Assembly: GCA_026196045.1 (NCBI GenBank)
Contig: JAPHRJ010000042.1
Span: forward strand, 4,151 to 68,150
DNA length: 64,000 nucleotides
Source: Gammaproteobacteria bacterium
GTDB lineage: Bacteria > Pseudomonadota > Gammaproteobacteria > UBA6429 > Thiohalophilaceae
Direction of reading: 5' to 3'
Shown: positions 828 to 30,181 of the stretch, piece by piece
Numbering within the stretch: position 1 is the stretch's first letter
How the letters are laid out: each line of letters starts with the position of its first letter
Translations under genes and position numbers: made by a program
Notes under the pieces: model-generated
Databases searched by the model: none
Told to the model about the DNA's origin: nothing
What the model saw: the letters and a program-made list of their open reading frames with translations, nothing else

Positions 828-3065
828 CTATTCAATAACCTGGGGGCCTAATACACGTAATACTTCGTAAATTGTCGTTTGACCACTATCTACTTTTTTA
901 TAGGCATCCTGCAATATGCTACTCATACCCTGTTGTGTGGCCGCCTGAGTAAGTTCTCCAATATTGGCACCGGCAGCAATCATATTTTTCAAATCTGTGC
1001 CGGGCACCAGAATTTCATAGATACCAATTCGCCCGCTATATCCCGTATGATTACATTGTTTACAACCTGTTCCCTCAAATGTCTGCAGATTGTCATTTTT
1101 AAACACAGGACCCAGTTGATGTAAATCCTCGTCCCGAATCGCAACAGGCGCTCTGCAGACCTCACAGATCTTGCGCACCAGCCGCTGGGCGATAATTGCT
1201 TCTAATGCGGTCGATACAATATAGGGCTTTAGCCCCAGATCCAGAAGTCGAGCGATAGTTGCCACCGCCGAGTTGGTATGCAGTGTCGAAAAAACCAGAT
1301 GCCCTGTCAGGGCCGCATTAAAGGCCACTTCTGCAGTTTCAATATCCCTAATCTCACCCAGAAGAACAACATCGGGATCCTGGCGCAGAATGGCACGAAG
1401 TACCGTTGCAAAACTGAGACCGACCTTATCCTTCACCATCACCTGGCCGGCCATATCCAGATAGTATTCAACCGGGTCCTCAATGGTGACATAGTTCTTA
1501 TCGGCTGTAGCATTATGCTGCAGGAGTGAATACAGGGTTGTAGTTTTGCCGCTTCCAGTAGGCCCGGTTGCGAGGATAATGCCCTGAGGCTTTTTAATTA
1601 CATTGACCACTCTATTGAAGTCCTCTGTTTCCAGACCCAACTGGTTAACTTCATGGATCGATGAATTACGATCCAGTAAACGCATAACAATCTTTTCACC
1701 ATTAATGGTCGGTAATGTTGAAATACGCAGGTCAATAATGCGCATTGGTGTCTTTACCGTAATACGACCGTCCTGTGGTCGACGACGCTCTGTAATATCA
1801 AGTTCAGCCATCACCTTGATACGTGAAACCAGCGACATATGCAGGCTATGGGGTATCTGAATCTTGTCAGACAAAATACCATCGGTTCGATAACGCACCA
1901 CGACACTATTGGTACGAGGATGAATATGAATATCACTGGCCTGATAACGTATTGCTTCCAGAATAATGGCATTGACCAGGCGAATGGCCGGAGGCTCATC
2001 TGAACCGTGTAATAAATCCTCCAGTGTCAGATCATCATCATCATCAAGAATGATCTCGATCGCCTCAAAGGGATCTGTACTTGATATCAGGGTTTCCAGA
2101 TCATCAAAATTGATATCCTCATCACCATAAACCTCGGTAATTTTATCCTGAATATCGGCAGCATTCGCCATGACGGCCTGGATCTCCAGACCAACGGTAA
2201 AGCGCAGATCATCTATCAGCCCCATATCCATCGGATCTGCCATAGCCAGTAACAAACGCCGGTTTTCCTGTTTTAAAGGTAAAACTAACTGTCGCTCACA
2301 AAAGCTGCGCGGGATCAATGATGATATAGCCGAATCAACCTGGAACTCAGCTAGTGAGACTTCATCGACCAACAAATCTTTTTTTAGAATATCGCGAATT
2401 TTTTTCTCCGCGACCCATTCTTTATCCAGGAGGATCCGGATGGTGGGAATTTTCTTCGCCTGCTGTATTTTATAAAGTTCCTGTACCTGTTTGTCATTCA
2501 GGAGATTGCATTTATGCAACATAATAGCAAGCTGACTGCGATTACTGACAGCCAGTTTGGACAGCTCCGATATTTCCTTCGCCCTTTTCTCATTTTGTTT
2601 TTGCAGTATTTTATTGCGCTGAATCAGATCATGCTGTTCCAGTGCCAGACTGACAGTAACGCGCAGGTCATCATCATTCCAGGGCTTGAGGATGAATTTA
2701 TAAACGGCACCTTCCTTGATAGCACTCATTACCGCATCCGTATCTGCGTGGCCCGTTAGCATAATACGGATAGTTTCAGGATGTTGTTTCTTGACCCTCC
2801 TCAGCAACTCACCACCATTCATCACTGGCATATTGAAATCAGAAATTATGAGCTGGAACACCGATCCATCCATAACTTTTAACGCCTCCTCACCACTGCC
2901 TGCAGTCATGATGTGATAGTTTTCCTGCCGGAACACTCGCTTCAAGGCATTTAGCACATTGGGTTCATCATCGACCAGGAGTATATGATAACCTGAGCTA
3001 GTCTCAACGGGCTGTTCGCTATCACCGGACTCTCCGGCTGTAAATAGTGAGGAATATTGTGACAT
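828..3065 (-). CDS. Response-regulator receiver fused to a GspE/PilB/MshE-family (type II/IV secretion) ATPase
   Basis: Receiver at aa ~27-145 (LLVDDEPNVL, acceptor in IISDFNMP, KPWNDDDL). T2SSE_N-like segment at aa ~240-310 (LIPRSFCERQLVLPL...LLLAMADPMD). ATPase core: Walker A GPTGSGKTTT, Asp box VTIEDPVEY, Walker B DPDVVLLGEIRD, His box GHLVFSTLHTN, and a tetracysteine CEVC...CKQC. The ATG lies 3 nt after the stop of the upstream kinase. Confidence 0.9.
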   Translation of the reverse strand: MSQYSSLFTAGESGDSEQPVETSSGYHILLVDDEPNVLNALKRVFRQENYHIMTAGSGEEALKVMDGSVFQLIISDFNMPVMNGGELLRRVKKQHPETIRIMLTGHADTDAVMSAIKEGAVYKFILKPWNDDDLRVTVSLALEQHDLIQRNKILQKQNEKRAKEISELSKLAVSNRSQLAIMLHKCNLLNDKQVQELYKIQQAKKIPTIRILLDKEWVAEKKIRDILKKDLLVDEVSLAEFQVDSAISSLIPRSFCERQLVLPLKQENRRLLLAMADPMDMGLIDDLRFTVGLEIQAVMANAADIQDKITEVYGDEDINFDDLETLISSTDPFEAIEIILDDDDDLTLEDLLHGSDEPPAIRLVNAIILEAIRYQASDIHIHPRTNSVVVRYRTDGILSDKIQIPHSLHMSLVSRIKVMAELDITERRRPQDGRITVKTPMRIIDLRISTLPTINGEKIVMRLLDRNSSIHEVNQLGLETEDFNRVVNVIKKPQGIILATGPTGSGKTTTLYSLLQHNATADKNYVTIEDPVEYYLDMAGQVMVKDKVGLSFATVLRAILRQDPDVVLLGEIRDIETAEVAFNAALTGHLVFSTLHTNSAVATIARLLDLGLKPYIVSTALEAIIAQRLVRKICEVCRAPVAIRDEDLHQLGPVFKNDNLQTFEGTGCKQCNHTGYSGRIGIYEILVPGTDLKNMIAAGANIGELTQAATQQGMSSILQDAYKKVDSGQTTIYEVLRVLGPQVIE

Positions 3066-3068
3066 GGT

Positions 3069-4298
3069 CTACTCCTTCACAGGCAAGATAATTGTGAAAG
3101 TAGTTCCTGTATCTTCCTGACTGTCTACCGTAATAGTACCGTTATGTGCCGCGATAATGTCACGACTGACTGTTAAACCCAGACCTGTTCCTTCACCAAC
3201 ATCATGCGTAGTATAAAATGGATCAAAAATCCGCCTCATAACCTCGGCGGACATACCCTTACCATTGTCACTAACCCGTATCACAATCTCCCTATTTATT
3301 AATCCGGACTCAATTTGAATCTTACCAGCAGCCTTTTTAATTGCCGTCACTGCATTCAATAATATATTGAGAAATACCTGCGCCAAATGCCCTGGTCGAC
3401 AACGCGTCAAAGGTAGTTCTCCTAATGCCAGCTCTAGTTCAGCCTTTTGTCCGATCTGGTTGGTAGCTACATTGCACACAGAGTGTATGATCTGATTTAT
3501 ATTCAGTGTTGCTTCTTCAGTGCGATCAACATTTGAAAAGTCCTTGAGATCAGACACTATACCTGCAACACGCTCTGCACCACTAACGCTTTCCTTCAGT
3601 AGTTCATTAAAGTCTTGCAACATATATTCAATATCACATTCATCCCATACCCTCTTCAAAACTGGCCCATTCAGTTCTTTTTGTATTTGTTCACTAAACT
3701 TAACAATATTTGAGACATAGTTTTGTGCGGTGGCAAGATTGCTAGTAATAAAACCAACTGGATTATTAATTTCGTGTGCAATACCGGCGGCTAACTGACC
3801 GACTGAGGCCAGTTTTTCAGCCTGATAGAGTTGACGCTGGGCATTTTCGATTGTTTTAACCTGTTCCTCTACACGTTGCTCCAGATTCTGCGCCAGTGCT
3901 TTGTATTTTTCCTCTGAATCCATCAAGGCTTCATGTTTCTTCTGTAGCGCTTCATAATCGGCATGAACTGCTTCAACATGTAAATTTGATGCCATCAGAT
4001 AACGTTCAGCACTTTTTAATATCTGTTCCACAAGAATTGTTGCGCTATGTGTCACCTTACTGTCACCTGCTTGCAAATAGGCAACGGGCTCCAGCTGAAT
4101 GGTTAACGGGATCCTGATACTGTCTATCCTGTCATTGTATTCACCCAGCACACTGTCGCCAGCCATATTCAGTATGCAAACTGACTCACCTAGTAAGCTC
4201 CTCAATGCCTGCAACAGTTTTTCCCTGTTAACGCCTTTTAACAGGTCATCTATACTGAGTTCACGATCAAATGCCGCAATGGGGGTTTCCTTCATCAT
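3069..4298 (-). CDS. Cytoplasmic sensor histidine kinase with an uncharacterised ~100-aa N-terminal domain
   Basis: No hydrophobic segments, a coiled coil, HisKA H-box AAGIAHEINNPVGF, and HATPase_c (DNGKGM, GTGLGL). Its ATG overlaps the GTPase stop (ATGATGA at 4293-4298). Confidence 0.9.
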   Translation of the reverse strand: MMKETPIAAFDRELSIDDLLKGVNREKLLQALRSLLGESVCILNMAGDSVLGEYNDRIDSIRIPLTIQLEPVAYLQAGDSKVTHSATILVEQILKSAERYLMASNLHVEAVHADYEALQKKHEALMDSEEKYKALAQNLEQRVEEQVKTIENAQRQLYQAEKLASVGQLAAGIAHEINNPVGFITSNLATAQNYVSNIVKFSEQIQKELNGPVLKRVWDECDIEYMLQDFNELLKESVSGAERVAGIVSDLKDFSNVDRTEEATLNINQIIHSVCNVATNQIGQKAELELALGELPLTRCRPGHLAQVFLNILLNAVTAIKKAAGKIQIESGLINREIVIRVSDNGKGMSAEVMRRIFDPFYTTHDVGEGTGLGLTVSRDIIAAHNGTITVDSQEDTGTTFTIILPVKE

Positions 4299-4960
4299 GG
4301 CACACCCGTTTCGGTTGAAGTCATAACCGACATAATAAAGTCATGCTCTTTTATACCGTGCTTTGTATGCAGTTCGAAACGACGTTCCATAGCCGGGTAT
4401 ACCTGTCGCAGCAATTCAACAAAGGTTTCCTTTACACCATCACCATTCAATGCCGAACTGAAAAAAAGTGACCACTGAGTCTTATCCCATCGAGCAGAGA
4501 CTTCATCCTTACTGACAATATCGGGTAGATCGCGTTTATTAAACTGAATCACCAGGGGTAAAGACTCAAAATCCAGACCCGCCCGTGCACAATTGTCTGC
4601 AAGGTTTTGAAATGACTGAGCATTGTTCATACTCTGGCTGGATTGAGAATCGGCCACAAACACCACACCATCAGCACGGGACAATACCGCCTTACGGGTA
4701 CCGTCATGGGCAACCTGGCCGGGAACGGTAAACAGTTTAAACTTAATCAGTAGACCGGAAGGGGCACGAAAACCAATCGGAAGCAGGTCGAAAAACAAGG
4801 TACGATCATTTTTAGTTTCCATCGTCATGATGTCGCCCTTAAGTTCAGGCCGCAGCATGTCATACAAGCGCATCAGGTTTGTTGTCTTGCCACTTTGAGC
4901 AGGACCATAGTAAACCAGCTTGATGGTCAGTTTTTGTAACTGTTCATCGTACTCAGCCAT
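4295..4960 (-). CDS. MglA-family Ras-like small GTPase
   Basis: 221 aa. IKLVYYGPAQSGKTTNL (P-loop), DRTLFFDLLP (MglA-type switch I with the intrinsic Arg), TVPGQ (G3), VIQFNKRD (G4), SSAL (G5). Collinear with my recollection of Myxococcus MglA (KIVYYGPGLCGKTTNL...DRTLFFDFLP...TVPGQ...NKRD). Confidence 0.85.
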   Translation of the reverse strand: MAEYDEQLQKLTIKLVYYGPAQSGKTTNLMRLYDMLRPELKGDIMTMETKNDRTLFFDLLPIGFRAPSGLLIKFKLFTVPGQVAHDGTRKAVLSRADGVVFVADSQSSQSMNNAQSFQNLADNCARAGLDFESLPLVIQFNKRDLPDIVSKDEVSARWDKTQWSLFFSSALNGDGVKETFVELLRQVYPAMERRFELHTKHGIKEHDFIMSVMTSTETGVP

Positions 4961-4969
4961 ATTGTAGAC

Positions 4970-5503
4970 TTAAACATCATCCTCACTCAGGATAATAGAG
5001 CCATCCGTGGCCCAGTCCACCGAAAATAATTCCGGATGTTGATTTTTATATTGTTCAAGTATCTGTTTTCGTTTATCGAGTTCTTTCTGCTGTGCCCTGA
5101 CCTGGTCAGCAAGATGACGGTTTTCTACTAGCACATCTCGGAATGCCAATGCCTGTTTAATGGTAGAAATAAGTTCATAATCCTGCCAGGGCTTGGTTAC
5201 AAAGCGGTATATTTCGGCGTTATTAATTGCACCAAGCAGGGCTTCCAGATCCGTATGTCCACTGAGGATCAAACGCATAGAATTGGGTTGCAGGTTTTTT
5301 ACCTCACTGAGAAATTCGACCCCATTCATCTCAGGCATACGGTAATCAGAGAGAAACAAATCAAAATTAGTAACCTGAGCGCGTTTAAGTGCATCTTTCA
5401 CATTGGAATATGATTCTATTTCCCAGTCAGTCTGTCCCCTGAATATACGCTCCAGAGCTTTAAGAATATTTTCCTCGTCATCAACAAGCATAATCTGGTA
5501 CAT
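4970..5503 (-). CDS. Stand-alone response-regulator receiver with a ~55-aa coiled C-terminal tail
   Basis: MYQIMLVDDEENILK..., acceptor LFLSDYRMPEMNG, KPWQDYEL. I chose the internal ATG at 5503 because GGAGAA lies 6-7 nt upstream and the longer ORF would overlap the upstream gene. Confidence 0.85.
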   Translation of the reverse strand: MYQIMLVDDEENILKALERIFRGQTDWEIESYSNVKDALKRAQVTNFDLFLSDYRMPEMNGVEFLSEVKNLQPNSMRLILSGHTDLEALLGAINNAEIYRFVTKPWQDYELISTIKQALAFRDVLVENRHLADQVRAQQKELDKRKQILEQYKNQHPELFSVDWATDGSIILSEDDV

Positions 5504-5504
5504 G

Positions 5505-6851
5505 TTATTTCTCCTTATCCGCCAATACGTAAATTTCCAGCTCATAATCTATCGCTTCTTCAAGATTATAAATACGTTCAATAATGCCTTCGGTCAGACA
5601 ATGTCCCTGAGAGAGCAACAGTATGTCATCCTGTATGATTAAATCCCGTGAGAGCACCATACCACTAGCCAGCCCATTTGATTTTAAACGGCGTTCAGCT
5701 ACATGTTCACTGCGTTCCGCCAGACGACTGATAACTTTGCGGAATATATCAACAGATTTAGGGTCATAAAAACTACCCCGGTGTCTGATGATATAGTCTC
5801 GCGCATCACTTGAATTCAAAAATTCTGTCACCAACAGTCCCTGTTGGAGATCATAGTAGTCACCCGCCACTTTTAGTATAAGTGCGGCGACAGGGATAGA
5901 ATCACCTTTCCGTTTTTCTGGATAGCCTGAACCATCAATATGTTCGTGTTGATGATGTATCAGACGTGCCGCATCCTGTAATGGTTCCAGAGCCATTAAT
6001 ATTCCTTCACCCACAATAGGATGTTGAGTATATGTTTTGTGCTCACTATCATTCATAGTATTGAATGATTTTTTCAGTAGTGTATCGCTGAGGCTGATTT
6101 TACCGACGTTACGTAATAGTGCGGCAAAGCGAAGCTGTTGAGTATCAGCCTCATCCATGCCCATTTCTATTGCCATATGTTCAGCCAGTTCAGCGATCTT
6201 ACGTGTCCGACCACTGGTCTGATGTTCACGCATTTCAATAATATTTGAGAACACTTCAACGGTAGAACGATAACTATCATTTAATGACTCATGTGCAAGT
6301 TCCAGGAAACTCACGGTTTGCTGTAACTCCCCTGTGCGTGCGGCTACTTTATCTTCCAGGCCAGCATTTAAGGTCTTAAGCTGTTTATTCTGCTTTCTAA
6401 TTACGACTTCAAGACGACGGCGTTCTTTTTCAAGCCGTTGTTGCTCAAGTGCCCGCTGCACAGTAAGTAGAATATCATTATCTTCCCATGGCTTACTGAT
6501 ATAGCGATAAATTTGTCCTTTGTTTACTGCATCAATCGTTGATGTAATATCTGAATAGCCTGTTAATAATATACGTACTGTCATAGGCCAGCGCTTAGCA
6601 ACTTCTTCCAGGAATGCAGCCCCATCCATCTCGGGCATACGCATATCAGAAATCACAAGGTCAATGGAATAGTGCTCCATAAACTTCAAACCTTCTGCCC
6701 CACTTTCTGCGGTTAAAATATGATAACCATGAGGACGAAAAAGGCGCTTTAAAGATGACAGGATGTTTGTCTCATCATCAACAAACAATAGGGTCGGAGG
6801 GTGTGACTTTTTCTGACCTGTCTGTGCTTCGGTATTAATTACTTTATCCAT
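5505..6851 (-). CDS. Response regulator with a degenerate HD-GYP output domain (RpfG-like architecture)
   Basis: Receiver (LLFVDDETNIL, VISDMRMPEMDG, KPWEDNDIL), a coiled coil, then an HD-GYP domain with HEHIDGSGYP. The canonical LHDIGK reads LRNVGK (CGT AAC at 6108-6113). The start is set at MDKVINTE (6851), just after the upstream stop. Confidence 0.88.
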   Translation of the reverse strand: MDKVINTEAQTGQKKSHPPTLLFVDDETNILSSLKRLFRPHGYHILTAESGAEGLKFMEHYSIDLVISDMRMPEMDGAAFLEEVAKRWPMTVRILLTGYSDITSTIDAVNKGQIYRYISKPWEDNDILLTVQRALEQQRLEKERRRLEVVIRKQNKQLKTLNAGLEDKVAARTGELQQTVSFLELAHESLNDSYRSTVEVFSNIIEMREHQTSGRTRKIAELAEHMAIEMGMDEADTQQLRFAALLRNVGKISLSDTLLKKSFNTMNDSEHKTYTQHPIVGEGILMALEPLQDAARLIHHQHEHIDGSGYPEKRKGDSIPVAALILKVAGDYYDLQQGLLVTEFLNSSDARDYIIRHRGSFYDPKSVDIFRKVISRLAERSEHVAERRLKSNGLASGMVLSRDLIIQDDILLLSQGHCLTEGIIERIYNLEEAIDYELEIYVLADKEK

Positions 6852-6858
6852 AATTAAT

Positions 6859-8139
6859 TCATGCTTCCTTTGCTTCTTCTGAACTCTGGGAAACAGGCAA
6901 CCAAACTTTGAAAGTTGTTCCTTTTCCAGCTTCACTCTGAACATCAATGTTTCCATGGTGTTTATTTATAATCCCATACGATAATGATAATCCAAGTCCC
7001 GTCCCCTTCCCTACTTCCTTTGTTGTAAAAAAAGGATCGAATATCTTTTTCATATTCTCCGGTTCAATTCCTTTTCCTGTATCACTTATTTCTATCCATA
7101 TCTGCTCATCCTGTTTTCCAGTACGAACAGTTATTACGCCACGTTCTTCAATTGCATGTGCGGCATTTACCAATAGATTCATAAAGACCTGATTTACCTG
7201 TGATGCAAGACATTCAATATCAGGTAATTCGCCATATTCTTTTATGACTTCCGCCTTATATTTTATCTCGTTATTTACAATATTCAGTGTGCTGTCCAGG
7301 CCACGATGAATATTCGCCCATTGCCATTCAGCTTCATCAACATGAGAGAAGTCCTTGAGGTCCTGAACAATCCCTTTTACTCTCGCAATACCTTCGCGGG
7401 ATTCAGAGACCAGTTCCTGCATGTCACGTTTTAAATAGCCTAAATCCAGTTCCTGTTTAAGTTTTAGTAACTGTTCAAGTTTATCGCCACCTGATTCAAT
7501 CATTGACTCCAGGTTTTCATACGCCTCCAGTAACTGACAAATATCAGAAACATAAGTTTGTAACGTAGCTAAATTCGAAAAAACATATCCCACGGGGTTA
7601 TTGATTTCATGGGCAACGCCAGCAGCAAGCTGGCCTATTGATGCTAGCTTTTCTGACTGTAGTAATTGTTCATGCGTTTCATGTAAATGTTTATTCGCTT
7701 CCAGAAGATCGTCATGACTTTTTTTCAACTCCTGCTGTGTCTTTCGCGATTCCTCATCTGCACGATACAAACGAATTGCGGTATTAATACAGTGATGCAA
7801 TATTTCTGCATTCAGACTGTCCTTTGAAAGATAGTCTGAGGCACCGGCACGCAGTAGATCTACAATCAGTCGCTCATCAGGCTGGCCTGTCAGAATAACC
7901 ACCGGTATACCCAGTTTCTTCTCCTGGATACTGTTTAACATTGTCAGCCCATCACCATCTGGCAACATATAATCAAGTAATGCGCAGTCATATTGCGTTT
8001 TTGTCATGGCTTCAATAGCACCAGCGACACTATTTGACTCATCAATTCTGATATCAGGTTTACTTGCGCTCAGCGCACGGCAAACCGCCATGCGATCCAC
8101 GTCGTCATCATCCACAACAAGTATTTTTAGTTCACTCAA
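6859..8139 (-). CDS. Hybrid receiver-histidine kinase (N-terminal REC, then HisKA and HATPase_c)
   Basis: ILVVDDDDVDR with acceptor ALLDYMLPDGDG. H-box AAGVAHEINNPVGY, paralogous to the kinase at 3069-4298. DTGKGI and GTGLGL. TTG start with GGAGAA about 8 nt upstream. Confidence 0.9.
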   Translation of the reverse strand: MSELKILVVDDDDVDRMAVCRALSASKPDIRIDESNSVAGAIEAMTKTQYDCALLDYMLPDGDGLTMLNSIQEKKLGIPVVILTGQPDERLIVDLLRAGASDYLSKDSLNAEILHHCINTAIRLYRADEESRKTQQELKKSHDDLLEANKHLHETHEQLLQSEKLASIGQLAAGVAHEINNPVGYVFSNLATLQTYVSDICQLLEAYENLESMIESGGDKLEQLLKLKQELDLGYLKRDMQELVSESREGIARVKGIVQDLKDFSHVDEAEWQWANIHRGLDSTLNIVNNEIKYKAEVIKEYGELPDIECLASQVNQVFMNLLVNAAHAIEERGVITVRTGKQDEQIWIEISDTGKGIEPENMKKIFDPFFTTKEVGKGTGLGLSLSYGIINKHHGNIDVQSEAGKGTTFKVWLPVSQSSEEAKEA

Positions 8140-8179: not shown

Positions 8180-8605
8180 TTACGGTAACCTTATTAATGA
8201 CCAGAACTGATATAAAGTATGGATTGCTTCATTAAATTTTTCCGGCTCGATTGGTTTCAGCACATAACCTGACACATTCAGTTCATAGGCTGCCTGTCGA
8301 TCCCTGTCCTCATCAGAGGTTGTTAATATCACGACACAGAGTGCACGCAAGGCCGGATCAGCCCGTAACTCGCGTAAAAATTCTATGCCATTCATTTTTG
8401 GCATATTTATATCCAGCAGGATAATTTTTGGCATGGGTGACAGTTTTGTTTCATGCTTCCCACGCAACATTGCCAGTGCATCAACACCATTACCTGCGAT
8501 ATATAACGGGTTATTAATCTTATGAAGACTGAAAGCACGTTGTACATTCATGGCATCTACTTCATCATCATCTACCAGCATAATGGCTACTTTATCGTCC
8601 AGCAT
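8180..8605 (-). CDS. Single-domain CheY-like response regulator
   Basis: 141 aa, IMLVDDDEVD, ILLDINMPKMNG, YVLKP. GGGAGA RBS upstream. Confidence 0.9.
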   Translation of the reverse strand: MLDDKVAIMLVDDDEVDAMNVQRAFSLHKINNPLYIAGNGVDALAMLRGKHETKLSPMPKIILLDINMPKMNGIEFLRELRADPALRALCVVILTTSDEDRDRQAAYELNVSGYVLKPIEPEKFNEAIHTLYQFWSLIRLP

Positions 8606-8617
8606 CCACTTATCTCC

Positions 8618-11242
8618 CTATGCAACCTGTTCCTCACTAGTCTCTACCGATACGACCTTTCCTTTTACCGGCAGGGTAAAACGGAATACGGCACCTTTTC
8701 CTTCTTCTGATTCTATTTCAACCTCTCCACCCAGTTCATTGACAATTTTCTTTACCAGCGTCAGTCCAACACCGGTGCTTTCTACACTATCGCGGGCCTG
8801 CAGCGTCTGAAACATATTAAATATTCTGTCATGGTATTCAGCGGCAATACCTGGCCCATCATCAGCAACACTGAATTCATAATATAGTACATTAAAGTCA
8901 GAATTATTCTGGCTATCCATATTGTCTTTACTGGTGATCAGTTTGCCCTCCAGTGTCCGTTCACGAACAGAAATATGAATATGGCCGTTATCCTTATGAT
9001 GGTACTTGATTGCATTACTAATCAAATTTGAAAAAACCTGAAATAGGGGAACACGGGCCGTCCTGACTAACGGCATACCAGGACTGATATCAATAGACAG
9101 ATCCTTGCAATCCAGTCCCTGCAGAATGTCCTTCAGCAGTCCAGATACATCTACCATTTCCATTTCCATATCCACGCGACCGGCCCGTGAATACTGTAAA
9201 ATGCCATTAATCAGTCCTTCCATGCGTGCTACTCGCCCACGCAACAGATCCATCTGCTTGCGAGTGCTGTCGGTCATAACGTCAGTAAGGTCTTCTTCTA
9301 TCCACTGAGAGAGGTTTGCAATTGCACGTAGTGGTGCCTTGAGATCATGAGATGTCACATAGGCAAACTGATCCAGTTCATGGTTGATACGCTCCAGTTC
9401 AACAAAAGCCCGCTTGCTTTCGGTTACGTCCGTATGTGAACCGGCAATTCGTACCGGGAAACCGTCCTCATCCAGCAATGCCAGACCTCGACAATGCATC
9501 CAGAGGTATTCGCCCGTTTTGCTTCGTACCCGGTATTCGATTGAAAAGGAACTGTTATCACCCGCCATACAGTCTGCCCATACATCCAGTGCATAGCCCA
9601 GATCATCGGGATGAATAAGACTCTGCAAGGCGATAAAGTTATTTTCAACCTCATACTCGGCATAACCCAGCATATTTTTCCAGCGCGATGAAAAATATAT
9701 CTGATCACGAGTCAAATCCCAGTCCCAGATACCATCCTGCGTTCCCCTTGTTACCAGTGAAAACCGCTCCTCACTGAGACGCAAGGCTTCCTCACTTTTC
9801 CTGCGTTGGGAAATATCACGCACAATACCAATAAAATGGACGCCTTCATGTTCCATTGGCAACTCACTTACTGACAGCTCTATTGGAAATTCATTACCAT
9901 CACTCCGTAATGCCGTTATCTCACGCGGTCCCTTGTTGATTATCTCTCCTTTGAGGGTGCCCCAATAATTTTCCTGATCAATATCTTGCTTATCGGTATC
10001 GGGAGCGAGCATTAACATACTTACATTCCGGCCTATCACTTCCCTGGCGTAATAACCAAACATACATTCGGCCGTGCGACTAAAACTTTCCACAACGCCT
10101 TGTGCGTTAATCGTAATAATACCATCGGCCGCATTCTCAATAATGGCATTTATCTTTTGTTTACTCTGTGTAAGCGCAACGACACTCTGCCGCAGATCTA
10201 CCTGCATCATTCTGCGTGCGCGCTGATTACGCAAAAACAGTATTAATATCACGACAAAAACGACCAGTACTAATAATGAAATTAACCACAGCAGACTCTT
10301 TTTCTTTTGTAACTCTTTTGACTGACTTTTAAACATCCCATCAAGTTCATCTTCTGTCGCATCAAATAGCCTGTATAACACACCCAATGTTTTCGTCCCT
10401 GCAGCGAAATAATTTTCACTCGACATACGTAATTGCGGCGTATCCCCTGTCTGTTTCTGTACCAGCAGTAAGAAATACCTGATACCTTCATTTACATCCT
10501 GCAGCTGTGGTAACAAGTTTGACCGCAGTTCCGGGTTGACAAGAAAAAGCACGTCCATATTCCGTTGCAGTTTATCCATTTCAATCTTAATAGACTCCTG
10601 CAGTATCGTGATTGGTTTAGTATCTGTCTCCGCAAGTTCGCTGTGCGTCACAATACCCGTTCCCATTCCTCTTATCTGGGCAATACTTTCTATTAACCTG
10701 GGTAACACAATTATGGATTCAGCAAGGTAGTAGGTATCCCTTCTTTTATCGGCGGTAAGACGAAAGAGATCAATCCCTTCATGCATGGAGGAGAGGTACT
10801 TTTCAATTATTACAGTATGTGCCGCAAACGTACCTGCTGGTGACATACGTGGATACTGTTGTAACAGTACATGCCAGTCTCTAAGCCACACCTTTTGGTT
10901 TTCTTTTACACCCGGCATCATTTGAATGGTGGGAAAACGATCCTGTATTTGCTGAATGTCCGCATTAATGTGTTGCGCCAGCTCTGGCAAGCTATCCCTG
11001 AAACCCTCTTTTCCGCTAAGGTAAGCGTAAGCCATACCACGATGTTGCTGAATATGATCAAGTAATACCCGCATGGATTCAATATAATCAATACCGATTT
11101 TCTGCTGGCTAATCAGGTGGCTTCTTGCCTCAAGCTCACTGCTAAGCAGATAAATGATGCTCGCAAAGGGCAACACCAGCATCAGTAACAGTAAGGTAAG
11201 GCTCAGGCTGTCTGTTGGTATTTTTCTATTGTGGTTGACCAT
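8618..11242 (-). CDS. Membrane sensor histidine kinase: periplasmic NIT-like domain, then two PAS domains, HisKA and HATPase_c
   Basis: Two TM segments (LTLLLLMLVLPFASIIYLL and LWLISLLVLVVFVVILILFL) bracket ~300 aa containing HIQQHRGMAYAYLSG and IAQIRGMGTGIV, which resemble NIT-domain motifs. Two PAS modules follow. H-box YVTSHDLKAPL, DDGPGI, GVGL. Confidence 0.85.
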   Translation of the reverse strand: MVNHNRKIPTDSLSLTLLLLMLVLPFASIIYLLSSELEARSHLISQQKIGIDYIESMRVLLDHIQQHRGMAYAYLSGKEGFRDSLPELAQHINADIQQIQDRFPTIQMMPGVKENQKVWLRDWHVLLQQYPRMSPAGTFAAHTVIIEKYLSSMHEGIDLFRLTADKRRDTYYLAESIIVLPRLIESIAQIRGMGTGIVTHSELAETDTKPITILQESIKIEMDKLQRNMDVLFLVNPELRSNLLPQLQDVNEGIRYFLLLVQKQTGDTPQLRMSSENYFAAGTKTLGVLYRLFDATEDELDGMFKSQSKELQKKKSLLWLISLLVLVVFVVILILFLRNQRARRMMQVDLRQSVVALTQSKQKINAIIENAADGIITINAQGVVESFSRTAECMFGYYAREVIGRNVSMLMLAPDTDKQDIDQENYWGTLKGEIINKGPREITALRSDGNEFPIELSVSELPMEHEGVHFIGIVRDISQRRKSEEALRLSEERFSLVTRGTQDGIWDWDLTRDQIYFSSRWKNMLGYAEYEVENNFIALQSLIHPDDLGYALDVWADCMAGDNSSFSIEYRVRSKTGEYLWMHCRGLALLDEDGFPVRIAGSHTDVTESKRAFVELERINHELDQFAYVTSHDLKAPLRAIANLSQWIEEDLTDVMTDSTRKQMDLLRGRVARMEGLINGILQYSRAGRVDMEMEMVDVSGLLKDILQGLDCKDLSIDISPGMPLVRTARVPLFQVFSNLISNAIKYHHKDNGHIHISVRERTLEGKLITSKDNMDSQNNSDFNVLYYEFSVADDGPGIAAEYHDRIFNMFQTLQARDSVESTGVGLTLVKKIVNELGGEVEIESEEGKGAVFRFTLPVKGKVVSVETSEEQVA

Positions 11243-11456: not shown

Positions 11457-12302
11457 TCAGGACGCACTGTCAATCAGCTGATCAGAAAACCGGTTCAGGT
11501 TTTCAATTTCGCCCAGATAACTACGAATAATGTCCCAGTTCAGGCCTAAACGTGCGAGTACAGAGGATTTCAGGAAGGGAATAAGATCATCACCGCCATG
11601 GCCAATATTCAAACCACGACAAAGGATATCAGACAGGTGGATCAGTTCAGCAAGGGGCAAGGACGTTGCAGGCAACGAGTGATGACTCTTTATCGCATCG
11701 ACAACGGGTTTGGGAAGTTTCCAGCTCTGAGCGACCTGTGCCCCAACAAGCGTATGGTCAAAGCCGAGCACAGCCTGTTCCGCTTCCCTGATTAAGCAAT
11801 CATGCTCATCTCGATAGGCAAGTACTCGGGCGAAATCCTCTTCAAAGTAGACCGCCATTACCACCTTACCAATGTCATGCAGCAAACCCGCCGTAAACGC
11901 CAGCTCCTGATCCATGCCAGCGTGGTGAGCTAATACTCGCGCACAAATCCCCGTTCCAATCACATGTTGCCAGAACGAATGCCGGTCAAAGTTTTGATCC
12001 TCTGCGGGAGGAAAGTGCCCAATAATGCCAGCGGCAGTAACGATATTATATAAAGTATGGATACCCAACATGGTACCGGCATCTTTTAGAGAACCAATAT
12101 GCGCGGATAAACCATAAAAAGGTGAATTGGCAATATGTAAAATGCGGGCTGCAAGAGCTTGATCATGACTGGCTTCTTCCATCAACTCAGCCATTGCAAC
12201 ATCATCCCGTTGGAGTTGCGTCAACAGGTGCGTAACAATAACCGAAAGTGACGGTAACTGTTGAATTTCTTTACTAAGACTTTCACGTGTCAACTTAGCC
12301 AT
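11457..12302 (-). CDS. HDOD domain protein
   Basis: 281 aa. LPSLSVIVTHLL..., ILHIANSPFYG, GLLHDIGKVVM. These are typical HDOD signatures. Confidence 0.85.
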   Translation of the reverse strand: MAKLTRESLSKEIQQLPSLSVIVTHLLTQLQRDDVAMAELMEEASHDQALAARILHIANSPFYGLSAHIGSLKDAGTMLGIHTLYNIVTAAGIIGHFPPAEDQNFDRHSFWQHVIGTGICARVLAHHAGMDQELAFTAGLLHDIGKVVMAVYFEEDFARVLAYRDEHDCLIREAEQAVLGFDHTLVGAQVAQSWKLPKPVVDAIKSHHSLPATSLPLAELIHLSDILCRGLNIGHGGDDLIPFLKSSVLARLGLNWDIIRSYLGEIENLNRFSDQLIDSAS

Positions 12303-12323: not shown

Positions 12324-12650
12324 TTATTCAAGCGATTCCAGGCGATAGGCCATTAAAATGTTTTTCAGCTGTTGCATTTCCACATCATCCTGTACATGGC
12401 GAAACCGATGTTCAAACTGAGTGATACAGGTATTTCGTAAAGCCGCGATCTCTTCAGCACTCAGCTCCTGCTCAAACTCAATTGCAAGACTATTGATACC
12501 CCGTTTGCTCAGACTATCCAGTTGTTTTTTTGTTAATACAACACCAGAAACCATCAGGCAATTTCCACTGGCATCCAGTACATCCTGGGCTAATGTCATA
12601 CCTGCTGTTACCTGATCCAGGCCAAGTATTTTACTGCTCATTATTGTCAT
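12324..12650 (-). CDS. Small hypothetical protein, translationally coupled to the upstream receiver-PAS gene
   Basis: The ATG at 12650 overlaps the upstream TGA (ATGA). The sequence MTIMSSKILGLDQVTAGMTLAQDVLDASGNCLMVSGVVLTKKQLDSL resembles, from memory, the short N-terminal module seen on many HD-GYP and GGDEF regulators. That family assignment is not verified. Confidence 0.5.
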   Translation of the reverse strand: MTIMSSKILGLDQVTAGMTLAQDVLDASGNCLMVSGVVLTKKQLDSLSKRGINSLAIEFEQELSAEEIAALRNTCITQFEHRFRHVQDDVEMQQLKNILMAYRLESLE

Positions 12651-13474
12651 TCTGTATGCACCGGTATAATCACAAGAATCACACCTTCGGCATTCGAACT
12701 CTGGCCTATCTGCCTGCAATAGACATCAATATCATTGCCATTAACAACAAGACCTCGTGCATGCGCTTCCTGTTCTTCAACTGCACGTTTACATAACTCA
12801 CAGACTGCCGGGGTTATGATATTAGAAACATCTTTCCCTACAAGCGCAAAGTCTTTTCCATTCAGCAAGGTATAAGCTCTACGATTTGCCAGAACAACCG
12901 TTCCACTGCCATCAATACCTATGACGCCAACGGGCAGGTTCTCTAATACTTCCTGTGAAACCTGTAAAGCATGCATATTTAACAGAACTTCACGGGTTTT
13001 CTCTTCTACCCGTTGTTCCAAACCCTGATTAATTTTTTCCAGCTCAATGTTCGCTTCTTTCAGTTCCTGAGTCAGACGTTCATTTTCCCGCCCGAGCTCA
13101 TAATAACGAAATGCCTCTTCTACATTGGCGCGTAATAATTCATCTTCCCAGGGCTTGGTCAGAAATTTGTATATGGCTCCCTGATTGATTGCTTCTGTCA
13201 CTGTATTCAGATCGGTATAGCCGCTTAACACCATACGAACAGTATCCGGGTATGTCTCACGTACTTTGGAAAGAAACTGAACACCAGTCATTTCGGGCAT
13301 ACGTTGATCTGAAAGAATGACTCCGACACCAGCATGTTCGGCCAGTAGCTGTAAACCTTCCGTACCACCGCCCGCTTTTAATATACGATAACCGTCGCGT
13401 CGTAATACCCGTGTTAGTGAACGCAGGATATTTTCCTCATCATCAACCAGTAAAATAGTCCGTTCATTACTCAC
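12647..13474 (-). CDS. Response regulator: receiver, coiled coil, C-terminal PAS-like domain
   Basis: ILLVDDEENILRSL, ILSDQRMPEMTG, KPWEDELL. The C-terminus LENLPVGVIGIDGSGTVVLANRRA is PAS-like. The ORF track starts at TTG 13483, but the AGGGGA spacing favours GTG at 13474. Confidence 0.82.
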   Translation of the reverse strand: MSNERTILLVDDEENILRSLTRVLRRDGYRILKAGGGTEGLQLLAEHAGVGVILSDQRMPEMTGVQFLSKVRETYPDTVRMVLSGYTDLNTVTEAINQGAIYKFLTKPWEDELLRANVEEAFRYYELGRENERLTQELKEANIELEKINQGLEQRVEEKTREVLLNMHALQVSQEVLENLPVGVIGIDGSGTVVLANRRAYTLLNGKDFALVGKDVSNIITPAVCELCKRAVEEQEAHARGLVVNGNDIDVYCRQIGQSSNAEGVILVIIPVHTE

Positions 13475-13932
13475 TAAACTCAATCCCCTACGATTAAACT
13501 TACTAAAATTCTTTTATAGTTACTAGCCTGTTCAACCGCTTTTATGGAACGTATAAACAACACCAGACATAGCTACATTCCAGTTTAAACAAATGTTATC
13601 TACAAAAAATTGTATCTAATAAAATTGCCTAAGTAATTTATCCGGATTTTTTTTAAGAGTAATAAATATTTTTCTTAACTCTATAATTATATATATCGAC
13701 TTTATGACAATTTTCTTCAGTCTTCAATCGCAAGGACAACTATGTTTTCATTAGCAGACTAAACACGCGTCTACATTTAAAATGTATCTAAATAATTTAA
13801 CGGTTCAGATATCAGAAAATTACAGGCAAAATGATCTCTAGTGAAAAACCGGGCCGGAAAGATCGACATCGGTATTCAGCTATGAAAAGTATGGCGCTAA
13901 CCATGATATGAAAGTGATAGACCTGTCACCAT

Positions 13933-27121: not shown

Positions 27122-30100
27122 TTATTTTTTCCTGCGCTTCTCAGCACGACGCAGGCGAGAACTCAGGCGACGAGCCAGTTCACCGAACAACTCAGTCTGA
27201 GTTGGGTGAGGATGTATCGCATTGCCGACCTGTTCCAGTGTCATATCACCAGAAACCATCATTACGCCTTCACCAATCAACGTATCTGCATGATCTGCAA
27301 GGAAATGTACGCCAATAACACGGTGAGAAACCTTGTCGGCCACAATCTTGATCAGGCCGTGGATTTCATTGGTAATCATGGCCTTGGCGTCGATATTCAT
27401 CGGTACTTTGACTTCAACCGCATCAATACCTTTAGCTTTGGCCTGATCAACAGAGAGACCAACAAAAGCCGCTTCGGGACGAGTAAAGATCACACCAGAA
27501 TCTTTGTCCTGATCATAAACCATGTCTTCACCGGCAATCGTGCAGGCCGCGACTCGGCCCTGCTGACCTGCGGTGTGCGCAAGCATCAGGCCACCGATAA
27601 CATCACCCACGGCAAAGATATGTGGTACCGAGGTGCGGCAACGATTGTCCGCCTTGATGACACCTTTTTCCGTTTCAACGCCGGCTTTGTCCAGAGCCAG
27701 AGGTTCAAGTACCGGACGTTTACCGGTAGCCATGATGACGTAATCACAACTGAACGTATGATCCTTATCATCACTACCGCCATAAACGATTTTCATCGCA
27801 CCGGGCTTGCCCTTGATTTCTTTAACCGTCGCGCCGGCTTCAATGGTCAGACGAGGATCATCATTAAGGACAGCGGTCAGCTGTTTGGCGATTTCAGGCT
27901 CCACTTCAGCAAGGATACGTTCGTTACCTTCAAGAAGCAGGACGTTAGCACCGAAATCCTGGAAAATCTGTGCCATTTCGACGCCGATCGCACCACCACC
28001 AATCACACCTAATCGTTTAGGAGCAGCTTTCAATCCCCAGACAGTATCTGAAGTCAGTACGCCACCAGCTTCAACCCCATCAAGGGCACCAGGGATAGGG
28101 GGAACAAATGGCGGTGCACCAGTCGCGATAACCGCACCGGCAAATGTTACGTTCTTAACTTTGGAACCATCACCGGGAATTGCACGAGTATGTGGATCGT
28201 CCTGATTACCGCCTGTATCAATCGCAATCGTGTGATCGTCAACAAAACGAGCAAAACCCTGGATCACATCAATCTTCACACCTTTATCGGTGTTCAGTGC
28301 CATTCCACCGCGCTTCTCTAGAACGCCACGGCGAGTTTTTTCCATCTTGGCCCAGTCGAGTGTCGGCTTGTTAGTGCCTTTAACACCCAGATGTTCATCA
28401 TGAGCACGATCACGAATACGATCGGCCGCTGCCCGCCAGGCTTTGGACGGTATACAACCACGCCACAGACATTCACCACCGGGGAACGGAGCATCGTTAA
28501 TCATGGCCACTTTATATCCGTGTTCTTTCAAATCACGGGCACAATCTTCACCGCCAGGGCCACCGCCAATGACAACGACATCATAGTCGTAGTTACCTTC
28601 TGGCAGTTTAAAATCAAAGCTGGCTGTTTGAGGAGCCGCCACGGCTGCTGGTGCTGACGCATCCAGCCAGGTTGGGCTTTCAACCAGTCCTTTAAATGTA
28701 TTCAGGAATTTAGCGGCATCGGCACCATTAACAATACGATGATCCGCTGTAATGGTGATCGGCATACCCTGAGGTCCCAGAGTAGAAATCGCAAAAATTG
28801 CTGAAGTACCCGGAGATGGAATCGCATCAAACTGTGCAACTCCCATCATGCCCATATTAGAAATGGTAAACGTGGGATTAGAGTATTCTTCTGGTTTCAG
28901 TCGACGGGCACGAGCACGATCGACCAGATCTTTCCAGTTAGCCGACAGATCACCTAAATCACGGTTAGACGCATCGCGCAGTACTGGTACGACCAGACCC
29001 ATGCCGTCGGTTTCTACCGCCAGACCAACATCGACATGTTCGCGTTCTATGATCCGATCTTCGTGCTGATATACCGCATTGATAATAGGATGTTTATCAA
29101 TCGCCAATGCCGCTGCTTTAGCCAGCGTAACAGTGAGTGAAAAACCTTTGGCTTTGGATGCCGCTTTCAATGCTGATGGATCGATATTCACCGTCACGCG
29201 GAACAGGGGCATGGAGAGTGAATATTCCATATTGTGCGCAACCGCTTTTTCCATAGCCGTCATTGGACGACCTTCACCCGCTACCTGGAAAATACGCTGA
29301 GTTGAGGTCTTCTGCACATTACTGTTCATCACGTCAGCCGCGATGATACTGCCATCAGCACCGGTTCCGGTGATGGAATTCAGATCAATACCATGTGCTC
29401 CGGCCAGTTGTCGTGCATACGGTGTGGCACTACCACTGCGTGGACGCGGTGCAGGTGTCGCACCATGTGGCATGGCTGGAATTTTGGTTTTGTGTTTAAC
29501 CGTACCGGAAGGTATCGCCTTCACTGGAGTCGCCGTATCTGCTGTCGAAGCGGCCGCACTGGCTGATTTTGTGGTGTTCAACACATGTCCCGCTTCCGGA
29601 ACCAGATACGCAATAGGTTCTCCAACTGGAATGACCGCATCAACCTCGGCCATCGGTCCAGAAAGATAGCCTTCACGGAAAACTTCCACGTCCATAATGG
29701 CTTTATCGGTTTCAATCTGGGCAACGACATCGCCACGTTCAACCTTGTCGCCAATTTCTTTTTCCCAGCTGACCAGCACACCTTCGGTCATGGTGTCAGA
29801 CAACTGAGGCATTTTAACTGGGTGAGCATCGGCTGGAGCTTCATCGACAGGCGCAACACTTTCTTCTACCACTTCTTCAGAAATGGCTTCCACTGGTGCT
29901 GCGGCTGGAGCAACTCCTTCCTGCTGTACCTCATCGGCACTCGCAACAAGATAAGCAATTGCATCACCCACGGGAACGGTTGCATCAACTTCGATCATTG
30001 GACCCGACAAATAGCCTTCACGGAAGACTTCTACATCCATGATGGCCTTATCAGTTTCAATGGTTGCGACAATTTCACCACGTTCAACTTTGTCGCCAAT

Positions 30101-30181
30101 TTCTTTTTCCCAGCTAACCAGCACACCTTCAGTCATGGTGTCAGAGAGCTGGGGCATTTTGATTACATAAGGTTCAGACAT
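27122..30181 (-). CDS. Fused E2-E3 of a 2-oxoacid (pyruvate/acetoin-type) dehydrogenase complex: two lipoyl domains, E3-binding domain, acyltransferase core, dihydrolipoyl dehydrogenase
   Basis: Two ETDKAIMDVE lipoyl motifs. PSBD: TPYARQLAGAHGIDLNSITGTGADGSI. Catalytic ADHRIVNGADAAKF. An Ala/Pro linker leads into VVVIGGGPGG...GGECLWRGCIPSK (redox disulfide) and the C-terminal HPHPTQTE. It is one uninterrupted 1019-aa frame. Confidence 0.9.
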   Translation of the reverse strand: MSEPYVIKMPQLSDTMTEGVLVSWEKEIGDKVERGEIVATIETDKAIMDVEVFREGYLSGPMIEVDATVPVGDAIAYLVASADEVQQEGVAPAAAPVEAISEEVVEESVAPVDEAPADAHPVKMPQLSDTMTEGVLVSWEKEIGDKVERGDVVAQIETDKAIMDVEVFREGYLSGPMAEVDAVIPVGEPIAYLVPEAGHVLNTTKSASAAASTADTATPVKAIPSGTVKHKTKIPAMPHGATPAPRPRSGSATPYARQLAGAHGIDLNSITGTGADGSIIAADVMNSNVQKTSTQRIFQVAGEGRPMTAMEKAVAHNMEYSLSMPLFRVTVNIDPSALKAASKAKGFSLTVTLAKAAALAIDKHPIINAVYQHEDRIIEREHVDVGLAVETDGMGLVVPVLRDASNRDLGDLSANWKDLVDRARARRLKPEEYSNPTFTISNMGMMGVAQFDAIPSPGTSAIFAISTLGPQGMPITITADHRIVNGADAAKFLNTFKGLVESPTWLDASAPAAVAAPQTASFDFKLPEGNYDYDVVVIGGGPGGEDCARDLKEHGYKVAMINDAPFPGGECLWRGCIPSKAWRAAADRIRDRAHDEHLGVKGTNKPTLDWAKMEKTRRGVLEKRGGMALNTDKGVKIDVIQGFARFVDDHTIAIDTGGNQDDPHTRAIPGDGSKVKNVTFAGAVIATGAPPFVPPIPGALDGVEAGGVLTSDTVWGLKAAPKRLGVIGGGAIGVEMAQIFQDFGANVLLLEGNERILAEVEPEIAKQLTAVLNDDPRLTIEAGATVKEIKGKPGAMKIVYGGSDDKDHTFSCDYVIMATGKRPVLEPLALDKAGVETEKGVIKADNRCRTSVPHIFAVGDVIGGLMLAHTAGQQGRVAACTIAGEDMVYDQDKDSGVIFTRPEAAFVGLSVDQAKAKGIDAVEVKVPMNIDAKAMITNEIHGLIKIVADKVSHRVIGVHFLADHADTLIGEGVMMVSGDMTLEQVGNAIHPHPTQTELFGELARRLSSRLRRAEKRRKK
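29600..29818 (-). repeat. Second lipoyl-domain copy of an internal tandem duplication
   Basis: aa 122-194, VKMPQLSDTMTEGVLVSWEKEIGDKVERGDVVAQIETDKAIMDVEVFREGYLSGPMAEV..., is nearly identical to aa 7-79, and the underlying DNA is also similar. Confidence 0.85.
29945..30163 (-). repeat. First lipoyl-domain copy of the internal tandem duplication
   Basis: aa 7-79, IKMPQLSDTMTEGVLVSWEKEIGDKVERGEIVATIETDKAIMDVEVFREGYLSGPMIEV... The offset to copy 2 is 345 nt. Confidence 0.85.

Follow-up and report, generated by a model that had tools for sequence, protein, structure and literature searches.

The sequence considered here is a 64,000-nucleotide stretch (the window) of contig JAPHRJ010000042.1, from a gammaproteobacterial genome assembly of the family Thiohalophilaceae (GCA_026196045.1). 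Near its start, on the reverse strand, lies a gene for a 745-residue protein in which a response regulator receiver domain (REC) stands ahead of an MshEN region and a motor ATPase of the kind known from type II secretion systems and type IV pili (T2SSE). The protein belongs to REC and also to the T2SSE superfamily, and it has an MshEN fold. Its gene closes a densely packed cluster on the same strand that extends from position 13483 down to 828 between dcd and apbC/metG. An identical protein is held in a public collection (P0001), where it is labelled solely 'ATPase, T2SS/T4P/T4SS family'. The positions of the gene, its domains and its neighbours are collected in Table 1.

Table 1. Window positions of the ATPase gene, its domains and motifs, and the other genes of the cluster
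Feature	Residues or length	Position (nt)	Strand	Basis or remark
REC-MshEN-T2SSE ATPase gene	745 aa	828..3065	(-)	Open reading frame (ORF), Pfam and NCBIfam domains
Receiver domain	28-137	2655..2984	(-)	Pfam PF00072, 92.5 bits against a cut-off of 30.2
Long linker helix	131-169	2559..2675	(-)	AlphaFold2 model; last receiver helix extended as a single helix
MshEN_N motif I equivalent, degenerate	178-201	2463..2534	(-)	TIGR02538, phmmer, profile and MAFFT register
Spacer between motifs I and II	202-206 (5 residues)
MshEN_N motif II equivalent, degenerate	207-230	2376..2447	(-)	Alignment
MshEN_C / T2SSE_N1 subdomain	236-317	2115..2360	(-)	Pfam PF05157, 76.9 bits, profile positions 6-88 of 90
T2SSE ATPase core	356-737	855..2000	(-)	Pfam PF00437, 434 bits against a cut-off of 24.9
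Asp box ERRRPQDGR	426-434	1764-1790	(-)
Walker A GPTGSGKT	501-508	1542-1565	(-)
Walker B VVLLGEIRD	566-574	1344-1370	(-)
His box TGHLVFSTLH	587-596	1278-1307	(-)
Tetracysteine motif, CEVC and CKQC	634-637 and 668-671	1053-1166	(-)
HisKA kinase, cytoplasmic (HK409)	409 aa	3069..4298	(-)	Pfam HisKA and HATPase_c; next gene upstream of the ATPase
MglA-type small GTPase	221 aa	4295..4960	(-)	Upstream of the kinase; Myxococcus xanthus MglA (6h17)
Single-domain response regulator	~177-191 aa	4970..5545	(-)	Pfam; paralogue of the ATPase receiver
REC-HD-GYP protein		5505..6956	(-)	Pfam HD_5, 8.2e-38; NosR family by NCBIfam (NF053512, 550 bits against 400)
REC-HK (receiver and histidine kinase)		6859-8139	(-)
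REC		8180-8605	(-)
PAS-PAS-HK		8618-11242	(-)
HDOD protein		11457-12302	(-)
Small ORF	~108 aa from MTIMSSK...	12324-12719	(-)	Between the HDOD and REC-PAS-like genes
REC-PAS-like protein		12647-13483	(-)

The receiver is intact. Its phospho-acceptor, D76 (nt 2838-2840), sits in the sequence IISDFNMP (residues 73-80), and the acidic pair D32/D33, T104, the switch aromatic F124 and K127 are all present, the last within the motif KPW (127-129). Residues D32, D33, D76, T104 and K127 are invariant among 119 full-length homologues (65-84% identity), and F124 is invariant in an alignment of 69 sequences. The ATPase is likewise complete, and every residue of its motifs, including C634, C637, C668 and C671, is invariant in the 69-sequence alignment. 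The tetracysteine zinc motif marks the GspE/PilB branch of these ATPases and is absent from PilT. An intact receiver and a full ATPase, with each motif located, were both claimed in the original prediction, which was made from the sequence alone, and both claims hold across the family.

Between these two parts, the last receiver helix is predicted to continue as one long helix. Conservation in this linker is spaced in heptads, at L140/L147/L154/L168 and at Q144/N151/N158/I165, and the linker is probably a dimeric signalling helix, presumably a coiled coil, that joins the receiver to the MshEN bundle. The AlphaFold2 model of the full-length protein (mean predicted local distance difference test, pLDDT, 77.9) places the receiver, helix 131-169, a four-helix bundle, MshEN_C and the ATPase in that order. 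A conserved peptide, MSxYxSLFT (residues 1-9, nt 3039-3065), stands ahead of the receiver, with M1 invariant and L7 and F8 nearly so; it is modelled at low confidence.

Homology and degeneracy of the MshEN segment

The original prediction singled out residues 178-201 (QLAIMLHKCNLLNDKQVQELYKIQ) as a degenerate form of the motif with which MshE binds cyclic diguanosine monophosphate (c-di-GMP), given there as RLGxx(L/V/I)(L/V/I)xxG(L/V/I)(L/V/I)xxxxLxxxLxxQ. This form agrees with the text of Wang et al. 2016 (Nat Commun 7:12481), where the motif is described in two copies with a 5-residue spacer and is accompanied by a relaxed search form, [RKPN]hGxxhhxx[GAS]hhxxxxhxxxhxx[QNKRYWST]. Seven of the eleven constrained positions of the relaxed form are matched by the motif I copy of the window protein, and likewise seven of eleven by the motif II copy. 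Because a 24-mer scoring at least seven was found in all of 300 shuffles of the protein, the motif I score is not above chance, and resemblance to the motif was dropped as evidence of homology in favour of alignment and fold. The Pfam MshEN match was also rejected as evidence for a c-di-GMP site, since the model spans residues 236-317 (MshEN_C) and not the binding helices.

Alignment settles the register of the segment. Residue 179 falls on position 2 of the PilB profile TIGR02538, from which point the two are collinear through to the C-terminus, and the Geobacter PilB sequence 'RLGELLVRNNVITKEQLAKALEEQ' pairs column for column with residues 178-201 in phmmer. A family profile of residues 170-345 matches Vibrio cholerae MshEN (5htl) with an E value of 1.1e-4, positions 7-112 lying on chain residues 7-112, Q178 on MshE R9 and Q201 on Q32. 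Residues 178-201, 202-206 and 207-230 are in register with MshE 9-32, 33-37 and 38-61, as tandem segments with their spacer. The AlphaFold2 model of residues 170-345 (pLDDT 84; predicted template modelling score, pTM, 0.75) consists of four helices followed by an alpha/beta subdomain, which is the MshEN fold, and the predicted helices 208-215 and 220-230 of motif II finish the four-helix bundle. Foldseek searches with this model retrieve the GSPII-A domain of PilF (9g1w; E 3.5e-9, TM score 0.75), the Xanthomonas citri PilB N-domain bound to PilZ (7lkm; E 1.4e-8, and matched by the family profile at E 1.3e-7), MshE with c-di-GMP (5htl; E 2.4e-7, TM score 0.62) and the XpsE N-domain (2d28; TM score 0.70). 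The collinear profile alignment and the predicted fold together identify residues 178-201 as the homologue of MshEN motif I. The coordinates and register originally proposed for the segment were thus exact, and the homology is upheld against the N-domains of both MshE and PilB on better grounds than those first given for it.

The substitutions in motif I are Q178 for the arginine and A180 and N187 for the two glycines, exactly the losses that had been predicted. The accompanying claim that the leucine and glutamine positions are kept stands for L179, L183, L188, L189 and Q201, but motif positions 7, 17 and 21 are histidine, valine and tyrosine, respectively. Motif II, which was absent from the original prediction, is also degenerate and is without the arginine, both glycines and the terminal glutamine. 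Compared with V. cholerae MshE (5HTL), the window protein has the same order of MshEN_N, MshEN_C and T2SSE, with 24-residue segments and a 5-residue spacer; however, residues R9, G11, G18, R38, G40, G47 and Q61 of MshE are all replaced, a receiver and linker helix are added in front, and the gene lies outside an msh pilus operon. Scans with the strict and the relaxed motif gave zero matches in the whole protein, in 120 family members and in 16 distant representatives, and by the sequence of both its copies the window protein does not qualify as a c-di-GMP-binding MshEN.

Residues N175, R176, S177, Q178, L179, A180, Q193, Q195, Q201, W217 and E220 are invariant or nearly so among the 119 homologues. 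A decaying remnant was considered and rejected, given this near invariance of the segment. Because the changed residues are almost invariant and none of the 120 members passes the relaxed motif, the altered MshEN_N pocket is a fixed and repurposed trait of the family under purifying selection. Comparably degenerate MshEN_N regions are found in Pseudomonas aeruginosa PilB, Xanthomonas PilB and XpsE, which are reported not to bind c-di-GMP. Ordinary PilBs that have no receiver are therefore degenerate as well, and the loss of the pocket is not specifically tied to the gain of the receiver. The suggestion in the original prediction that phosphorylation has replaced c-di-GMP control is thus best described as plausible.

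More distant REC-fused clades keep the pattern xLGxxLxxxG in motif I. Examples are 'ILGSILTEAG' in Gmet_3473 of Geobacter metallireducens, where the window clade reads QLA...N and does not match the motif, and the near-canonical 'RLGVMLKKKG' in P0170, the most divergent REC-MshEN-T2SSE protein compared. This retention is compatible with, although it does not prove, an order of events in which the receiver would have joined a c-di-GMP-competent ancestor first and the pocket would have been lost later in the window clade.

It is improbable, in our estimation, that the altered MshEN_N region still binds c-di-GMP or a related dinucleotide through non-canonical conserved residues, so that the motor would integrate both signals. 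The fold is retained, motif I keeps its terminal glutamine and several hydrophobic positions, the strong conservation of the replaced residues would suit a new ligand site, genes for HD-GYP, HDOD and GGDEF-EAL proteins accompany the module, and the text of Wang et al. 2016 notes that binding is possible with imperfect motifs. Both half-sites, however, are without the arginine and the two glycines, motif II is also without its glutamine, the similarly degenerate XpsE and P. aeruginosa and Xanthomonas PilBs are reported non-binders, and the relaxed motif is passed by no family member. Since the replacement residues are under strong constraint, the MshEN_N bundle would most likely act as a structural relay or a partner-binding module and not as a nucleotide sensor, and c-di-GMP would be linked to the motor through gene context instead of direct binding.

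Gene neighbourhood and distribution of the family

The histidine kinase HK409 is encoded directly upstream of the ATPase, with its stop codon 3 nt before the ATPase start and with AAGGAG in the junction sequence placed as the ribosome-binding site. The stop codon of the MglA-type GTPase gene in turn overlaps the start codon of the kinase (ATGA). This GTPase matches M. xanthus MglA (6h17) with an E value of 3.6e-42 over residues 9-193, and the P-loop, intrinsic arginine finger, catalytic glutamine (PGQ) and NKxD motif by which MglA is recognised are kept in 72-73 of 73 orthologues.

At least 544 relatives of the ATPase were confirmed by a family-specific peptide scan of one genome per GTDB species. 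For the best 80 of these, identity is 57-74%, and residues 1-345 are covered in full by nearly all. Related loci with enough flanking sequence number 73, and in 71 of them the genes for the MglA homologue and the kinase stand directly upstream on the same strand; the kinase is farther upstream of the ATPase gene in the remaining two. REC-HD-GYP genes are found upstream in 52 of 63 loci, a homologue of the single-domain response regulator is upstream in many related loci (tblastn), and GGDEF-EAL proteins recur in 24 of 80. A REC-HD-GYP gene and the gene for a single-domain receiver paralogue are the usual companions of the MglA and kinase genes. The linkage also extends to more distant relatives, in which the N-terminal half of the ATPase is 38-43% identical: MglA and kinase genes are upstream in four of five such clades (L085, L086, L088 and L089). 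Where two of these loci were compared (L085 and L086), the MglA-like gene is 52-54% identical, which makes the GTPase the better conserved partner in those clades. In the fifth, L087 (the locus of P0170, gene 3946-6270), neither an MglA nor a kinase gene stands upstream; this is one case only, on a short contig of 7 kb, and it is also the one in which motif I is near-canonical.

Residues 1 to ~150 of the kinase match no Pfam family, and tblastn alignments in related loci typically start at about residue 10. Comparison of its N-terminal 159 residues with PDB sequences gave matches at chance level only. These ~150 residues nevertheless appear conserved and are a candidate GTPase-binding or sensor domain.

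The REC-HD-GYP protein of the window has RN in place of HD (AALLRNVGK), with HHQHEHIDGSGYP kept. Because HD is kept in 46 of 58 orthologues and RN is found in only two of the 58, the window copy may be a non-catalytic variant within its family. A degenerate HD-GYP gene and a neighbouring HDOD gene, the latter recovered here by Pfam, had both been noticed originally.

A possible reading, to which we give only tentative weight, has a protein partner dock on the MshEN region: a PilZ-type adaptor, after the manner of the Xanthomonas PilB-PilZ-FimX complex, MglA-GTP or the HD-GYP protein. The state of c-di-GMP or of the GTPase would in that case reach the motor indirectly. The match of the predicted domain to the X. 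citri PilB N-domain crystallised with PilZ (7lkm), the conservation of surface residues and the constant presence of MglA and HD-GYP genes all point in this direction, whereas Pfam scans detected no PilZ gene in the window cluster.

The receivers of the ATPase, the single-domain regulator, the REC-HD-GYP protein and REC278 form a paralogous group with 38-46% identity (40% over 142 residues between the single-domain regulator and the ATPase receiver), as against 21-33% between this group and the other two receivers of the cluster. Three paralogous receivers sharing a cluster is a layout typical of sink and branch designs, and the literature assigns a role in localisation to the REC domains of FimX and FrzS. 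Even so, a receiver that serves merely as a phosphate sink or a polar-localisation tag for a constitutive ATPase is very unlikely: the phosphorylation residues, the heptad linker and MshEN_N are invariant together across hundreds of species, which fits the transmission of a signal along the chain.

Elsewhere in the cluster, the small ORF between the HDOD and REC-PAS-like genes may encode a genuine small protein of the signalling system or may be spurious. A promoter and terminator scan of the cluster found nothing above the expectation from shuffled sequence.

Carriers among the best 80 relatives include Dechloromonas, Azonexus, Aromatoleum, Sulfuricella, Methylotuvimicrobium and Methylomicrobium, as well as many metagenome-assembled genomes of Gallionellaceae, Thiobacillus, Chromatiales and Ectothiorhodospiraceae. 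A relative is also present in Sulfuriferula sp. AH1. About a dozen further clusters (clustering at 50%), with proteins of 627-819 residues, match over the receiver, linker and MshEN regions, two of them from Halomonadaceae. The domain architecture is not new, having been catalogued in 2016: REC-MshEN-T2SSE, with Gmet_3473 as its example, is entered for beta-, gamma- and deltaproteobacteria in Supplementary Table 4 of Wang et al. 2016, which also notes that a recognisable motif is missing from some of the proteins tabulated. Gmet_3473 and the window protein share their domain order and this taxonomic range; the entry in that table carries neither a function nor a partnership with MglA and a kinase. 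A literature search whose coverage left out most subscription journals returned no functional study of a REC-PilB/GspE protein beyond this catalogue entry and no description of an MglA-kinase-ATPase module. The near-obligate and ancient linkage to MglA and a dedicated kinase, a testable signalling hypothesis, is what adds interest to the architecture.

Family assignment and a possible mode of motor control

The ATPase scores 568.3 bits against the PilB equivalog TIGR02538 (curated cut-off 675.65) and 560.1 bits against the GspE equivalog TIGR02533 (curated cut-off 630.25), and so falls short of both. The GspE alignment begins only at residue 251, whereas PilB profiles and structures align from residues 177-180, and the top PDB matches are PilBs, those of M. 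xanthus (3JC8, 437 bits) and Geobacter (5TSG, 429 bits), from residue 177-180 to the C-terminus. PilBs are thus the best full-length matches; the tetracysteine motif is shared with them, and P. aeruginosa PilB has a likewise degenerate MshEN_N. The window protein nevertheless differs from PilB in its score below the cut-off, in its additional N-terminal receiver and in having no adjacent pilC or pilD. Because it fails the PilB and GspE cut-offs, the operon context of both and the definition of the c-di-GMP motif, it ought to be classed as a separate subfamily, REC-fused and PilB/GspE-like, instead of as PilB, GspE or MshE.

The nearly equal PilB and GspE scores could be taken to indicate a type II secretion ATPase of the GspE/XpsE kind, in which case the module would gate protein secretion and not drive a pilus. 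XpsE also has a degenerate MshEN_N, and the neighbouring kinase partially matches the NCBIfam model NF038348, 'T2SS_HK'. That match, however, covers the generic catalytic half only (245 against a cut-off of 450), the late start of the GspE alignment and the PilB structures at the head of the PDB matches both favour PilB, no gsp genes are nearby, and the partners described for MglA in the literature consulted are type IV pili and systems of motility and polarity. We therefore regard a secretion ATPase as unlikely.

An interpretation to which we give about an even chance is that the protein is a phosphorylation-controlled, PilB-like motor within a module that combines MglA, two-component signalling and c-di-GMP. 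It would be a response regulator whose output is a hexameric motor ATPase of the PilB/GspE type. Phosphorylation of D76 would control the motor, with the linker dimer and the repurposed MshEN bundle passing the signal on so as to affect hexamer assembly, activity or docking of the ATPase. The most likely phosphate donor would be the translationally coupled HK409. The kinase is probably modulated by the MglA homologue, in the manner proposed for small GTPases of actinobacterial conservons; alternatively, the homologue might determine where the motor is placed, a part that MglA plays for the type IV pili of Myxococcus. MglA is known to regulate type IV pilus formation in Myxococcus and to work with type IV pili in Bdellovibrio (PMC4316618). 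The paralogous receivers would probably constitute a branched phosphorelay that sets ATPase activity and, through HD-GYP, local c-di-GMP turnover in parallel. The target of the motor would most likely be a machine resembling a type IV pilus, with its genes elsewhere in the genome. Domain content, intact catalytic residues, degenerate motifs, fold, conservation in the family and synteny are what the analysis shows; the donor, the role of MglA, the direction and effect of phosphorylation on the ATPase and the pilus target we infer. An MshEN region that docks a partner, as considered above, is compatible with such a phosphorylation-controlled motor.

Several observations weigh against this interpretation. 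The full-length model has a pTM of only 0.50, so that its inter-domain geometry is unreliable, and the PilB and GspE scores are both below their cut-offs and nearly the same. Pfam scans detected no pilC/gspF, pilin, secretin, pilT or other pilus or gsp gene in the 64-kb window and no pilC/gspF, pilin or secretin among the Pfam-annotated genes of eight related contigs, and no pilus or secretion family recurs among the clustered ORFs of the 80 related loci. Neither the cluster, including its small ORFs, nor the annotated flanks of relatives contain an MglB/roadblock gene of the Robl_LC7 type, although MglB may lie elsewhere in the genome. Adjacency is what pairs HK409 with the ATPase receiver, in a cluster with three kinases and six receivers. 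For every member of the family, moreover, the evidence for a controlled motor is that of sequence, predicted fold and synteny.

Known systems offer partial parallels to the proposed motor. MglA, receiver proteins and a PilB-type ATPase act together in the MglA-SgmX-FrzS/RomR system of M. xanthus and are here encoded together; the window system differs in that its parts are fused or adjacent in one operon with a kinase, that no MglB or SgmX was seen and that it occurs in beta- and gammaproteobacteria. A phosphorylatable receiver controls a pilus motor in the case of the Synechocystis PATAN-REC regulators, which bind PilB1, and of P. aeruginosa PilG/PilH, but those receivers are separate proteins fed by a chemotaxis-like CheA, whereas the receiver in the window is fused to the motor and accompanied by classical HisKA kinases. 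The actinobacterial conservons (the kinase CvnA, the roadblock protein CvnB, CvnC and the MglA-like GTPase CvnD) likewise place a GTPase beside a kinase with which it is presumed to work; in contrast, the window module has no roadblock/MglB or CvnC gene, belongs to another phylum and has a fused motor ATPase as its output.

A stronger form of the proposal, which we consider doubtful as a whole, is that the REC-ATPase, MglA and HK409 constitute an ancient and obligate three-gene unit in which a Ras-like GTPase would gate a kinase that phosphorylates a receiver built into the motor, the former c-di-GMP pocket now serving as a relay or docking element. If true, this would be a direct pathway that leads from a G-protein by way of a phosphorelay to a motor and is common among beta- and gammaproteobacteria. 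The inputs known for motors of type IV pili and type II secretion systems are c-di-GMP (MshE), PilZ-FimX adaptors, separate response regulators (PilG/PilH, PATAN) and MglA by way of SgmX, and the REC-fused family would bring three such inputs together in a single operon and, in part, within a single polypeptide. Its carriers are hundreds of environmentally important species, among them methanotrophs, sulfur and iron oxidisers and denitrifying Rhodocyclales, and it offers a compact, testable system in which to ask how a Ras-like GTPase communicates with two-component signalling and a motor and, as a second question, what becomes of an MshEN pocket once c-di-GMP binding ends. Should the function prove to be ordinary alternative pilus assembly, the value would lie mainly in better annotation.

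Outside the cluster, housekeeping genes begin at position 14167 (apbC, metG, rnf), and Pfam scans of 20 further ORFs of the window found housekeeping genes only. Beside a phosphate-transport permease gene, a 755-residue ORF at 54862-57129 (-) has no Pfam match at an E value of 1e-8. A 1019-residue ORF at 27122-30181 (-) contains a complete E2 component (two lipoyl domains, an E3-binding domain and a 2-oxoacid acyltransferase domain) and a complete E3 component (Pyr_redox_2 and Pyr_redox_dim), and by its domain content it would fuse the E2 and E3 of a 2-oxoacid dehydrogenase complex.

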